A DNA stretch of 36,267 nt from a virus. A program made the translations under genes and the position numbers. Position 1 is the stretch's first letter; every line of letters begins with the position of its first letter. The stretch lies in the UHGV virus genome UHGV-0220921; one strand, given 5' to 3'. The notes below the pieces were generated by a model that saw only the letters and a list, made by a program, of their open reading frames with translations, searched no databases and was not told the DNA's origin. Shown here one piece after another: positions 30,372-33,639 of the stretch.

Positions 30372-30738
30372 TTTGATTCTCTCCTTTGTAATTTGTACTG
30401 ATTACTTTTGCGCCCATCCGCTCATACCATTCAACCTGTTCTTTTAAATTCGGTAAGGTCCTAGAAATCAATGCTATGGTTAGGTGAGTTTTGCGTTCTG
30501 TTCTATCAATTATTGCTCCGGAATATTTTTCAATAGTCAGGCTATTATCAATACTGACACTACAGTGGTTGCCATTCCAGCTTGGCTTGATATCGCTAAT
30601 CACAATATTTCCATCGGCATCTTTTATTTCATTTTTAATCCAACGTCTACTGTTGTCATCTTCAATCGCTTTTTTATAAACTTGCCCCATACCCGTTGGA
30701 ACATCAAAAGTAAGTACAGCCTCATGAAAATCATTCAT
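30352..30738 (-). CDS. hypothetical protein (start trimmed to MNDFHEAV)
   Basis: RBS AAAGGAG lies 9 nt before ATG 30736-30738. The track's N-terminal extension would read through the upstream terminator hairpin. Confidence 0.5.
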   Translation of the reverse strand: MNDFHEAVLTFDVPTGMGQVYKKAIEDDNSRRWIKNEIKDADGNIVISDIKPSWNGNHCSVSIDNSLTIEKYSGAIIDRTERKTHLTIALISRTLPNLKEQVEWYERMGAKVISTNYKGENQNGNNQN

Positions 30739-30753
30739 AGATAAAACTCCTTT

Positions 30754-30784
30754 CAAAATAAAAAGACCACTCAAAGAGTGATCT
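30754..30784 (-). terminator. intrinsic terminator (AGAUCACUC-UUU-GAGUGGUCU then UUUUAUUUUG) closing the ORF-free structured region
   Basis: 9-bp stem with one G-U pair plus a U-tract on the minus strand. Confidence 0.55.
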
Positions 30785-31330
30785 AATATGTAATAGCAAC
30801 CTACACACAGACAAGTCTAATACTTCCTGCGCCTCACCACTGCCACATCCCTCGGTTGCTAACGAATACTGAAACAGAATACCGTCTCTGTTCATGACCA
30901 ACGCGACAGTACAAAGCTTTGTCGCAAGCAGGTTATCGTATTCCTAATAACCCCAACTAATGTTTCTCTCCTAACCTACACCTGAGAGTGGCACACGTCT
31001 GCGCTAGTATTTTATGCCTTCTAACTGCTAGTCGCATCCCGACTAGTCAGCCAATTCATCGGCATCCGATAAGATGAATTGTTTCCGTAGGTTCCTTAAG
31101 TCACTGGCAATGAATCGAACATTGCAACACCATTTTCCGATATTTTACAGACTCTTCATCATAAAAGCTCTCACCTCTAGAATTGTCTATCTTTAGGGGA
31201 ATTATTCAAGATGCCTCTTGCCCATTACCCTCGACGGTCTCTTGCCTAGCTGCATAAACTAAGCTCAGGTGCTCATTACCACTGATTTAAGTTATTAGCG
31301 TTACCTTTCCGCCACAGTGACAAATTAATA
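30785..31330 (-). ncRNA. candidate large structured noncoding RNA (about 0.55 kb, G-rich on the minus strand, ends at an intrinsic terminator); class unknown, possibly ROOL/GOLLD-like ornate large RNA
   Basis: No ORF of 60 aa or more lies in any frame across about 700 bp of an otherwise gene-packed genome. G+C is 25/60 and 28/60 in two hand-counted lines. Local hairpins are listed under findings. Confidence 0.35.
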
Positions 31331-31410
31331 TTGTGAAAATAAATACTAAGCGTATAATTTTATTTATCAGCGAGTGGTCCGCTGAAATAATTGATAAGGA
31401 GGTGGAAATT
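31331..31410 (+). promoter_or_regulatory. promoter TTGTGA-16-TATAAT followed by the conserved hairpin CAGCG-AGTGGTC-CGCTG and RBS AAGGAGGTGG (copy 1 of a duplicated promoter-leader element)
   Basis: Read directly. It leads into a 19-codon micro-ORF (31411-31470) antisense to 31477..31677. Confidence 0.5.
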
Positions 31411-31476
31411 ATGGTGCAGGTTCCTTATGCTGAATCCAATTGTTCGTGGTGGCGGGCAATACAAATATAGATTCTA

Positions 31477-31677
31477 TTAATCTTTAATTTGAGCTGGCAT
31501 GCCAATTGTCAGCTCTGTTAATGTGGCATTTTTTTTCATATAATCTTCCACTTTTGATACAGCATTTTGCAAATTAGAAATCGTCCAGCCTTTCTCGGTT
31601 ACAAAACTAATAACCGTTTCAATAAATTCTTTTTCCTCTGTTTCTAAAACAATCCTTTGCGTGTCCATTCTATTCAT
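31477..31677 (-). CDS. hypothetical small protein
   Basis: ORF track entry. RBS AAAGGAA lies 8 nt before the ATG. Confidence 0.5.
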   Translation of the reverse strand: MNRMDTQRIVLETEEKEFIETVISFVTEKGWTISNLQNAVSKVEDYMKKNATLTELTIGMPAQIKD

Positions 31678-31684
31678 TCCTTTC

Positions 31685-31745
31685 TGTTGTATAATTTCCT
31701 TATCAGCGAGTGGTCCGCTGAAATGAATTATAGGTGGTGAAAAAT
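31685..31745 (+). promoter_or_regulatory. copy 2 of the duplicated element: TATAAT (31691-31696), hairpin CAGCG-AGTGGTC-CGCTG (31704-31720), RBS AGGTGGTG
   Basis: An ungapped 25-nt match (TTATCAGCGAGTGGTCCGCTGAAAT) to 31362-31386 plus shared flanks. It drives the DUF1508 gene. Confidence 0.5.
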
Positions 31746-31925
31746 TTGTACTTTGTTATAAGAGAAGCAACTAATGGCCAATATTACTTCGTTATTAAGT
31801 CCGATAACAATGAAGTAGTAGCAACTAGCGAAACATACTTGACTAAATATTCCGCTGAACAAACCATTAATTCTATAAAAAACGGAATCACCAAAGACTC
31901 TCAAGTTATCGATATGACTAAATAA
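31734..31925 (+). CDS. DUF1508 (YegP-like) small protein on the plus strand (start GTG 31734 or TTG 31746)
   Basis: YFVIREATNGQYYFVIKSDNNEVVATSETYLTKYSAEQTINSIKNG matches the DUF1508 repeat pattern. Confidence 0.6.
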   Translation: MVKNLYFVIREATNGQYYFVIKSDNNEVVATSETYLTKYSAEQTINSIKNGITKDSQVIDMTK

Positions 31926-32331
31926 GACGACTAACTTCATTTGCTAGGGAGTTCATTTCAGCTGCTTTTTCTACTAAAGCAGTTGAGATACTTTCTAGCT
32001 TTTCTGATTTAACAGAATTAAATACTGGCGTCTTGATACTGATCGATACATCTTGACGAGGATCAGGACTCGTTGCTCTATTTTTTTGCACCACTGATCT
32101 GTACTTTTCTACTGAATGATACTCAATTACTTGTTCCAAATGTTTTTTGTACTCTTTACATACAGCTTCTTTTTGGATCAATTCTAAACGTTGTTGCTCA
32201 ATAATATCAATCAACCGTTTTCGATCCATACCTTGATACTTTATTTGTTCGACTTGGTCACTAGCCTTGTTGAGCAGTTCTTTTAGTTCAGTCAAATCTA
32301 ATTTGACAGTTGCTTTGATTTCTTTATCCAT
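31918..32331 (-). CDS. hypothetical coiled-coil protein (start trimmed to MDKEIK)
   Basis: RBS GGAG precedes ATG 32329-32331. The track's N-terminal extension lacks an RBS. Confidence 0.45.
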   Translation of the reverse strand: MDKEIKATVKLDLTELKELLNKASDQVEQIKYQGMDRKRLIDIIEQQRLELIQKEAVCKEYKKHLEQVIEYHSVEKYRSVVQKNRATSPDPRQDVSISIKTPVFNSVKSEKLESISTALVEKAAEMNSLANEVSRLI

Positions 32332-32560
32332 TCGTTTTTTCTCCAATACATAAATTAATAGACAGCAACGGATGATAGATAATAAGAACAATTTAGAAGG
32401 AGTTGGAATTCACATCCTTATTCTTAATATTTCCGTCGCTATCTATCGAAGCTTAATTGTGAAACAATAATAAAACGATGTTCCTTTTATTATTATTTTG
32501 TCTCAGACCTATCACTAATCTTTCGACACTATCATAATACAACATTGAATAGGTAAGTGA

Positions 32561-32626
32561 TTGGTATAAAAAAGGTATAAAATGGAAACCAAATTGGTAA
32601 TAAAAGGGTATAAAAAGTGTAAAAAC
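32561..32626. repeat. array of 4-5 direct GGTA(T/A)AAAA repeats
   Basis: Copies at 32563-32571, 32574-32582, 32596-32605, 32607-32616 and a degenerate one at 32619-32626. The array lies between the sigma-like gene's stop and the next operon. Confidence 0.5.
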
Positions 32627-32629
32627 TGG

Positions 32630-33097
32630 CTACTTGAAAGCAACCAGTTCTAACGATGAAGCAAATTGGATGATAATTCTGTTTGATTCTACTTTAACCG
32701 ATTCTTCGCTAGTATTATTCCTTTGAGCAGTTACATAAATGGGCAGACCATTGATATAACGATCATAGAATATCTTCTTGCGCCTTTCAGTCACATCGGG
32801 TTTGTGCGGATGCTGTATAGCAGAGTATCCTCTAATAAACAATTTATGCAAATACTCAAATTCTTCTTGTGCTTCTTCTTTATCAATCAACATTCTTTCG
32901 GCTTCAAAATCATGATTAGCTGTAGATGGTGGAACCAAGGAGTATGATGCTGTCACTTTTGGTTCTCGAGGTTGCCCTACTCTACATCTAGCTGATAGAT
33001 ATGCTGAAAGGAAAACACCAACATTATGTTTTGTGCGGTCCATATCAACATCTTTCGCGCTTGGTGTCTCATATTTCTTTACATCGAAAAGTACCAT
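32630..33097 (-). CDS. sigma-factor-like late regulator (region-4-like C-terminus)
   Basis: ERRKKIFYDRYINGLPIYVTAQRNNTSEESVKVESNRI fits the sigma-70 region 4 pattern. Confidence 0.45.
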   Translation of the reverse strand: MVLFDVKKYETPSAKDVDMDRTKHNVGVFLSAYLSARCRVGQPREPKVTASYSLVPPSTANHDFEAERMLIDKEEAQEEFEYLHKLFIRGYSAIQHPHKPDVTERRKKIFYDRYINGLPIYVTAQRNNTSEESVKVESNRIIIQFASSLELVAFK

Positions 33098-33171: not shown

Positions 33172-33639
33172 TTATTTTGTACGTGAAATGAGTTCTCCTG
33201 ATTTATACGCCTCAGCAAATTCAACCAAAGCTACTGCCTTCATTCTCTCGATAGTTCTATCGGAATATCCTAATTTTTCTCCTATTTGATACATCGTCAT
33301 CTTATTAGGAAAACAATAACTATAATAAAGTACCTGGAAATGGATTCTACTTAGCCGTGTTAATGCATCGATAACCGAATCTCGAGTACTTATCGCTTCA
33401 ATGATTTCTTCGTTTTGACTGTCAATTGTGAATTTCAAATTTTTGGTAACAGTCATCACGGAAAAGTCTATTTTCACTGGTCCGACCAAACGTTCTAAAT
33501 TTCTGTATCTTTTTAGTAATCGTCTAGCATTTTTCCTTGTTTGCTTAATATCTATATTCTCTAAAATGTTCACAATTGCCTCTTCTCCTTCCAGTTGTGG
33601 GATAACGCTCATTGTTGTAGGATAGTTGTAAAAAAGCAA
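33172..33639 (-). CDS. ArpU-family phage transcriptional regulator (late gene activator)
   Basis: LKRYRNLERL and the C-terminal HTH YQIGEKLGYSDRTIERMKAVALVEFAEAY are typical of ArpU/RinA-type regulators. Confidence 0.7.
   Translation of the reverse strand: MLFYNYPTTMSVIPQLEGEEAIVNILENIDIKQTRKNARRLLKRYRNLERLVGPVKIDFSVMTVTKNLKFTIDSQNEEIIEAISTRDSVIDALTRLSRIHFQVLYYSYCFPNKMTMYQIGEKLGYSDRTIERMKAVALVEFAEAYKSGELISRTK

Follow-up and report, generated by a model that had tools for sequence, protein, structure and literature searches.

Morons, as known from lambdoid phages of the HK97/HK022 type, are autonomous promoter-gene-terminator units that lie between phage genes, and mosaic phages carry conserved boundary ('linker') sequences at the junctions of their modules. 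Firmicutes possess 5'-terminal stem-loop stabilisers, of which the aprE leader, the ermC leader and the phage SP82 stabiliser are examples and the cryIIIA STAB-SD represents a related principle; those of Bacillus guard mRNA from 5'-end-dependent RNases. In this work we describe a repeated element that resembles each of these systems, present in two copies in the virus genome UHGV-0220921, a stretch of 36,267 nucleotides (hereafter the window) that sequence comparison assigns to a temperate phage of Enterococcus. Each copy probably represents a unit of a portable expression cassette for morons, which combines a sigma-A promoter with a 5' stabilising stem-loop and a strong Shine-Dalgarno (SD) sequence and would serve at the same time as a recombination junction. 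The general kinds of element involved, namely morons, 5' stabilisers and conserved junction sequences, are already known; what is new is a single structured promoter-leader unit that is reused for dozens of gene families across the phages of a genus.

Like morons, the cassette has its own sigma-70-type promoter, often a terminator-like site of its own, and a small accessory gene, and it lies between phage genes. Unlike morons, a single promoter-leader unit, including a 5' hairpin that covaries, serves at least 56 unrelated genes across hundreds of phages, and the cassettes are almost always antisense to their neighbours and can form arrays. The likeness to the Firmicutes stabilisers consists in a stem-loop a few nucleotides from the predicted 5' end, followed by an open and strong SD, where a fixed spacing of 5-6 nt from the -10 box puts the cassette stem at a predicted +2; the cassette departs from them in having a nearly fixed loop sequence and flanks, and a stabilising effect is proposed for it by analogy. 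Similarly, the cassette shares with linker sequences the character of a short conserved intergenic stretch with unrelated genes around it and recombinant junctions inside it, and is set apart by a clear expression function (promoter, leader and SD) and by an RNA structure that appears to be under selection.

The exact 25-nt element TTATCAGCGAGTGGTCCGCTGAAAT occurs at 31364-31388 and at 31700-31724, both on the plus strand; the window holds no further copy at up to three mismatches, and 100 shuffles yielded none. The similarity between the repeats reaches 38 nt at 87% identity with a spacing of 336 nt, and both copies share the order TATAAT, 25-nt element, purine-rich SD and start codon. An earlier reading made from the sequence only had proposed exactly such a two-copy promoter, 5' hairpin and ribosome-binding site (RBS) element, with a -35 box and 16-nt spacer at copy 1 and with copy 2 leading into a DUF1508 gene that ends 8 bp inside the convergent gene 31918..32331, and all of these assignments hold. 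The parts of the two cassettes are as follows:

31331..31358, plus strand: promoter of cassette 1, with -35 TTGTGA at 31331-31336, a 16-nt spacer and -10 TATAAT at 31353-31358.
31367..31385, plus strand: 5' hairpin of cassette 1, with stem 31367-31372 / 31380-31385 and loop AGTGGTC at 31373-31379.
31386..31413, plus strand: A/U-rich unstructured linker of cassette 1, SD AAGGAGGTGG (31396-31405) and ATG (31411-31413).
31690..31695, plus strand: -10 TATAAT of cassette 2, in a 'class B' context of the form ...CAT-N-TTCCTTTCTGTTG-TATAAT.
31703..31721, plus strand: 5' hairpin of cassette 2, with stem 31703-31708 / 31716-31721 and loop AGTGGTC at 31709-31715.
31722..31925, plus strand: linker of cassette 2, SD AGGTGGTG (31732-31739), TTG start at 31746 and DUF1508 gene to its stop at 31925.
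32054..32085, plus strand: terminator-like hairpin with T-run, 130 nt beyond the DUF1508 stop and within the convergent gene; the window's only candidate.

The promoter of cassette 1 matches the consensus at 10 of 12 positions, and the same 'class A' promoter, ATTGTGAAAATAAATACTAAGCGTATAAT, precedes the hairpin in most of the first 120 loci; loci L155, L161, L162 and L202 repeat the class B context that lies upstream of cassette 2. Transcription starts were set by prediction at 7 nt after the -10 box, giving 31365/31366 for cassette 1 and 31702 for cassette 2. The distance of the helix from the 5' end follows from this placement, by which the stem is predicted to begin at +2 of the RNA. The DUF1508 gene likely starts at TTG 31746 rather than at GTG 31734, and the cassette 2 transcript may end at 32054..32085.

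Comparison with other phages places the two repeats, on the evidence of their sequence, within a widespread family rather than as the products of a local duplication. The exact 24-nt core is present in at least 120 contigs of IMG/VR; a scan with a degenerate stem again yields a lower bound, a scan anchored on the linker and SD only returned 95 contigs, and the module as a whole is present in at least 300 Enterococcus phage contigs of IMG/VR. The core occurs in at least six Enterococcus species (mundtii, viikkiensis, durans, wittei, casseliflavus and lactis) and also in Pisciglobus, and BLAST matches to the unit include published phages of E. faecalis, phiFL1A to phiFL3B, as well as others. Family statistics rest on 320 collected instances with 37 distinct hairpins. 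TATAAT is present in 301 of the 320, the spacer from the -10 box to UAUC is 5 nt long in 181 instances and 6 nt long in 136, 148 instances have a TG extension and most others a -35 TTGTGA, and the start codon lies 19-26 nt beyond GAAAU across the family, in which arrays of two or three units also exist. Rfam gave no match at the gathering threshold in the whole window and nothing relevant at E<=10 in 30700-32700; the hairpin sequence was not found in full-text literature, and the literature on morons and hotspots of Enterococcus prophages was searched without finding a description of the element.

A 6-bp stem with a 7-nt loop (AGUGGUC) is present in the minimum-free-energy (MFE) fold of both leaders, and a covariance model made from 45 leaders found only these two copies in the window, at 66.6 and 62.5 bits, the next match scoring 17 bits. 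RNAalifold applied to 45 complete leaders predicts this hairpin alone and leaves the linker and SD open. Among the 34 of the 37 hairpin variants that were aligned, 96.4% of cells fall in standard pairs, three of the six stem pairs show changes on both sides, and the loop-closing pair is seen as AU, CG, GC and UA. None of 500 shuffles matched the observed covariation score, and sliding the 3' partners lowers pairing to 21-41%. The non-Watson-Crick cells are plus-strand G·U pairs in 11 variants (69 instances), with A·C cells, equivalent to G·U on the minus strand, in only 2 variants (3 instances). This comparative evidence indicates that selection acts on the structure of the hairpin in the plus strand. 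A scan that left the hairpin unconstrained collected 97 loops, comprising 56 of sequence AGTGGTC, 13 with one or two base differences, 23 of a GTGACAG class and 5 unrelated; the helix is universal, and the loop AGUGGUC is strongly preferred and not obligatory. A possible likeness of this loop to a tRNA D-loop and to the complement of the 16S rRNA 3' tail was considered and given no weight. Two other roles for the hairpin were considered and rejected. For a translational switch, in which the 5' arm (UUAUCAG) would pair with CUGAUAA near the SD, the complement is missing from many leaders, that of copy 2 included, and neither RNAfold nor RNAalifold predicts the pairing; as a minus-strand terminator the hairpin has no T-run, and its wobbles become A·C mismatches on that strand.

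The genes that follow the unit are diverse. Among 306 complete first open reading frames (ORFs) there are 56 unrelated families, mostly of 45-160 aa, and most cassettes carry a single gene. The commonest cargo is a solo Cas2-like protein of ~90 aa (41 instances; PADLOC Cas2b 3.9e-8, with Pfam CRISPR_Cas2 at 2.4e-4 just below the cut-off), followed by DUF1508/YegP with 26 instances, in all of which the leader and gene are identical to copy 2. Multidrug-resistant Enterococcus lineages often have no CRISPR-Cas. The Cas2-like cargo corresponds to gp05 of phiFL1A (L296 3066-3344), which is annotated there as 'sinR-like' and displays the complete promoter-hairpin-gene-terminator layout. Further cargo includes DUF1883, YjzC, KTSC, DUF2513, zinc ribbons, a TIR-like protein and many proteins without any match; searches of the cargo against PADLOC, Pfam and PDB returned domain names and no established function. 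A terminator-like site lies within 200 nt past the stop in 161 of 296 cargo genes (54%), compared with 49 of 296 random control segments (17%).

Furthermore, cargo and module are combined freely across the family, with up to 5 hairpin variants per cargo family, joined to different promoter classes, and up to 21 cargo families per hairpin. Both copies in the window are recombinants whose junctions fall inside the module. In copy 1, a promoter of class A and the CAGCG hairpin are followed by a linker, SD and gene that stand behind other hairpins in L161/L162. In copy 2, the upstream context is of class B (as in L155 and L161), and the CAGCG hairpin and DUF1508 leader are of the sort usual at class A loci. 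The conserved unit would account for such combinatorial shuffling of cargo, through homologous recombination.

The first unit of the array in the window is followed by these two genes:

31411..31480, plus strand: DUF1883 cargo remnant, with its 9 first codons kept, a net 170-nt deletion at ~31437 and an out-of-frame C-terminus ...IVRGGGQYKYRFY*.
31477..31677, minus strand: 66-aa gene that faces the DUF1883 remnant in convergent orientation; its RBS and start codon abut the -10 box of cassette 2.

The reading frame of copy 1 runs MVQVPYAES and then meets an early stop (19-codon ORF 31411..31470). Loci L046 and L161 hold an intact 79-aa DUF1883 gene (Pfam DUF1883 5.5e-14) with the same start and the same end ...IVRGGGQYKYRFY, and the window aligns with both on either side of the net 170-nt deletion in a split BLAST alignment; it is because of this deletion that the C-terminal part of the copy 1 gene is out of frame. 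The 19-codon ORF, which the sequence-only reading had taken for a micro-ORF, is therefore, by these alignments, the pseudogene stump of a DUF1883 gene. Copy 2 carries a 59-aa DUF1508 (YegP/UPF0339) protein (Pfam DUF1508 9.5e-13, PDB YegP 6.5e-14), whose gene overlaps the convergent gene by 8 nt. The 66-aa gene has neither a Pfam nor a PHROG match, and at least 15 loci have it beside a module, with identities of 93-100%. It is nearly always the convergent companion of DUF1883 cargo, and the conserved class B edge upstream of the next cassette includes its start codon and RBS (AGAAAGGAA). The full two-unit layout (unit, DUF1883, convergent 66-aa gene, unit, cargo) is kept in at least 13 loci, and the duplication is in this way shared with relatives.

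The position of the unit in the phage genome varies and the unit itself stays constant. In phiFL1A and phage 4995_1 it is found in the early region beside cro-side genes, directed towards cI and the integrase, and in this window and most E. faecium-type loci it lies between a late leader 'A' and a terminator 'B', before the first late genes; phages differ in the cargo, of 56 families, that they hold between the conserved flanks B, M and A. Across the family, 72% of long-ORF bases within 3 kb of modules are on the opposite strand. The plus strand of the window is the lysogeny strand, with a cI-like helix-turn-helix (HTH) gene, an ImmA/IrrE gene and an integrase-size ORF of 401 aa, and the minus strand holds nearly all remaining genes, including the terminase and the structural and lysis genes. 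On the minus strand the order runs from the ArpU/RinA-like genes through a terminator and three direct repeats to leader 'A':

33172..33639 and 32630..33097, minus strand: two tandem ArpU/RinA-like activator genes (PHROG 248 match).
32548-32629, minus strand: three TTATACC-type direct repeats with 11-bp spacing, directly after the second ArpU/RinA-like gene.
32350-32540, minus strand: conserved leader 'A', found in nearly 100 loci.
32350..32629, minus strand: putative late promoter region opposed by the cassettes, made up of the repeats and leader 'A'.
30764-30784, minus strand: conserved intrinsic terminator 'B', AGATCACTC-TTT-GAGTGGTCT and T-run, common to ~90-100 loci with differing flanks.

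In phiFL2A, three 7-nt repeats just distal to arpU are needed for ArpU to activate the late (terS) promoter (PMC3753634). The repeats at 32548-32629, behind the ArpU/RinA-like genes, fit the ArpU box model of that study, and because their layout matches the phiFL2A arrangement, we infer by analogy that the minus-strand genes facing both elements form the start of an ArpU-dependent late region. The sequence-only reading had described the plus-strand transcripts as antisense to a minus-strand early operon; the opposed orientation is correct, and the genes opposed would belong to the late region, downstream of the ArpU boxes and the late promoter, rather than to an early operon.

Several further observations were made in this region. 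Enterococcus phage 4995_1 and two records of 'Listeria' phages match the stretch 32350-32500 at 97-98% identity. Terminator 'B' directly precedes the RBS and ATG (30738) of the first gene after the leader, and its place within the late leader hints that read-through is regulated. An ORF-free stretch of ~530 nt (30785-31330, minus strand), which separates cassette 1 from the first late gene, folds strongly (MFE -177 kcal/mol, z -3.6) and is a candidate structured non-coding RNA or late-operon leader; scans of 30700-32700 and 30740-31345 found no Rfam family for it even at E<=10. Part of it, 30957-31107, shows 86% identity to unannotated DNA, on the tRNA strand, in the tRNA gene cluster of Enterococcus Schiekvirus myophages (e.g. 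Porthos). Enterococcus-phage sequence at 80-97% identity was also met in L124 (NZ_RHPP01000297.1), a 1.1-kb contig labelled Stenotrophomonas, in the Acinetobacter phage D2SVT record (PQ554527.1; H12/H15) and in Listeria phages LM 4-11-1 and 4-14-1 (OR846730, OR848098; H2/H3), and the host labels or assemblies of these Stenotrophomonas, Acinetobacter and Listeria records may be wrong.

The anatomy, conservation, covariation, cargo diversity and orientation set out above are observations; the transcription start, expression during lysogeny and stabiliser function proposed for the cassette are inferred. The promoter would be of the host sigma-A type, with its near-invariant TATAAT joined to either a -35 TTGTGA or a TGn extension, and the transcript would begin just before the 6-bp stem and 7-nt loop, placing the stem at +2. 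An unstructured A/U-rich linker would follow, then a very strong SD (AAGGAGGUG or GGUGGUG), and the start codon would lie 19-26 nt beyond the hairpin. Built in this manner, the cassette would express small accessory ('moron') genes, oriented with lysogeny and against the lytic genes, presumably from the prophage. By analogy with the Bacillus 5' stem-loop stabilisers, the 5'-terminal stem-loop most likely shields the mRNA from 5'-end-dependent decay, a function that the sequence-only reading had listed as an option and that this analogy supports as a reading. The conserved unit would further act as a homology patch for the exchange of cargo genes between phages, and the array in the window would consist of two such units, one before the dead DUF1883 gene and the other before the DUF1508 gene. 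As with morons, comparable genes are expressed from a prophage in E. faecalis V583, where a few genes of prophage 6 (ef2833/abi-alpha, ef2847 and ef2850) are constitutive, with their own promoters and mapped starts (PMC6356687). The 5' untranslated region (UTR) of EF2850 measures 45 nt and is flagged 'Primary, Antisense' (supplement of PMC7724050), near the 42-49 nt predicted from the module. These data, and the orientation that the cassettes share with the lysogeny genes, indirectly favour expression in lysogens.

A number of points weigh against the moron cassette with a 5' stabiliser. The transcription starts in this phage are predicted positions, cassette 2 has neither a -35 box nor a TG extension and relies on its -10 box alone, and the copy 1 promoter now heads a pseudogene. 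The hairpin is small, and the folding energies of the whole leaders are ordinary compared with shuffles (z -0.2 and -1.5). The presence of a module at EF2850 is unconfirmed, and in the transcription start site table of Michaux 2020, covered up to a point before prophage 6, no relevant module-type upstream sequences were among the matches listed. A plain stabiliser also leaves three features unaccounted for. The AGUGGUC loop and its UAUC/GAAAU flanks are nearly fixed while the stem drifts. The 8-mer GAGTGGTC is common to the cassette loop region and the 3' arm of terminator 'B' (30764-30784), on the opposite strand. Finally, the hairpin CAG[C/T]C-AGTGGTC-GGCTG is reused as the upper part of a plus-strand terminator (GGACAGCCAGTGGTCGGCTGTCTTTTT) in 12 loci, 1.2-2.1 kb downstream of the module on the same strand (L004, L006, L009, L011, L032, L035, L059, L061, L066, L067, L087 and L092).

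Within the window the heptamer AGTGGTC occurs at three places only, namely both module loops and terminator 'B'. Terminator 'B' and the module loop are both nearly invariant, which makes covariation between them uninformative, and a few variants of 'B' (GAGTGATCT) occur alongside an unchanged loop. In some of the 12 loci the reused hairpin stands ~55 nt after a TGATATAAT box, an arrangement that from its sequence could yield a short small RNA-like transcript.

Four other explanations of the hairpin and its transcripts were weighed, two of which operate on DNA. The sequence-only reading had raised a shared operator, and the inverted repeat, which closely follows the -10 box, might be one, bound by a dimeric repressor of the Aca/AcrIIA1 kind common to the cassettes. 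The palindrome does lie at +2 to +20, a fixed distance from the -10 box; the cargo resembles accessory defence and anti-defence genes (Cas2-like, TIR-like); and, as at acr promoters with their Aca/AcrIIA1 operators, a strong conserved promoter and an inverted repeat stand before variable small accessory genes. However, the half-site bases are not conserved, the innermost pair being GC, AU, CG or UA, half-site centres are 13 bp apart, and G·T pairs occur asymmetrically, being accepted on just one of the strands. The cassettes are not accompanied by an HTH gene, either as cargo or as partner, and unlike at acr promoters the repeat is part of the transcribed leader and shows the covariation of an RNA helix. 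A stem with all four Watson-Crick pairs at one position and strand-specific G·U wobbles is a poor fit to an operator, which we disfavour because of this covariation pattern and the lack of an associated HTH gene, and consider very improbable. A still fainter prospect is recombination at the level of DNA, for which the hairpin would fold in single-stranded DNA, as an integron attC does, and mobilise gene cassettes. As in integrons, small variable genes near the promoter form arrays, of 2-3 units here, and the hairpin, with its strand-specific wobbles, is conserved in structure more than in sequence beside variable cargo; modules and cargo are also shuffled in many combinations. Against this, there is no integrase or other recombinase beside the arrays, cassettes occur at several genome positions, and the hairpin is 5' of the gene, locked to the -10 box and SD at fixed spacings for which a recombination site would have no need. 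The crossover points differ as well (hairpin, linker and upstream classes), as in homologous rather than site-specific exchange, and it is because of these variable crossover points and the missing recombinase that an integron-like origin is disfavoured.

The other two explanations concern the RNA. The plus-strand transcripts might act chiefly as antisense RNA or by transcriptional interference on lytic transcripts, comparable to P22 sar and lambda PRE/OOP, with the ORFs being secondary. The cassettes are convergent with the putative ArpU-dependent late region here and with cro-side early genes in phiFL1A and phage 4995_1, the promoter and leader of cassette 1 are intact despite its dead ORF, and the cassette 2 transcript meets no terminator before the convergent gene. 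Set against this is the cargo, whose 56 diverse families are intact and stand behind strong SDs with the spacing fixed, which points to selection for protein expression, as well as the terminator-like site that more than half of the cassettes have near the stop and the variable positions in the phage genome; we hold such a role to be distinctly unlikely. It corresponds to the regulatory switch that the sequence-only reading had entertained; a switch private to this locus is contradicted by a unit that heads 56 unrelated families at varied places in many phages. Somewhat less doubtful, though still unlikely, is that the loop is a sequence-specific recognition element, bound by a host or phage RNA-binding protein or engaged in loop-loop pairing, so that the cassette genes form a post-transcriptional regulon. 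The AGUGGUC loop is kept over at least 8 different stems, its U-A and C-G flanks and the GAAAU tail are invariant, and CAG[C/U]C-AGUGGUC-GGCUG forms the top of the plus-strand terminator in the 12 loci already named. However, in the unbiased sample ~29% of hairpins have unrelated loops, the GUGACAG class among them, in cassettes that are otherwise intact, the hairpin is not accompanied by any candidate binding protein, and the conservation may partly mirror recent spread through recombination. The fixed loop and flanks, the terminator reuse and the shared 8-mer give this explanation some probability, and a role as trans-acting antisense RNA is less likely.

In a more far-reaching form, for which we see only a slim chance, the AGUGGUC hairpin would be an RNA recognition element common to the cassette transcripts of many prophages, either with a protein partner or pairing with the GACCACU loops that every lytic (minus-strand) transcript would carry wherever it crosses a cassette. 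If this were true, prophage-made leaders could act in trans on lytic transcripts, their targets could include the terminator at 30764-30784, which shares GAGTGGTC, and the transcripts of superinfecting relatives, and the outcome would be an RNA-based layer of lysogeny maintenance or cross-immunity.

Under the reading that we favour, of a portable expression cassette that doubles as a recombination junction, this work extends an observation of two copies in one phage to the motif of a whole family, which joins a promoter and SD to a 5' leader hairpin that covaries and which is absent from Rfam and from the searchable literature. The motif provides a search flag for candidate lysogenic-conversion, defence and anti-defence genes in the prophages of Enterococcus, a clinically important genus. 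Such use parallels the discovery of anti-CRISPRs through Aca-controlled promoters, and the cassette may likewise serve as a flag for gene discovery. It further offers a compact natural expression part for enterococci and a concrete case of a conserved junction for the exchange of phage cargo, and the near constancy of its loop hints, in a way that can be tested, at a further layer of regulation.

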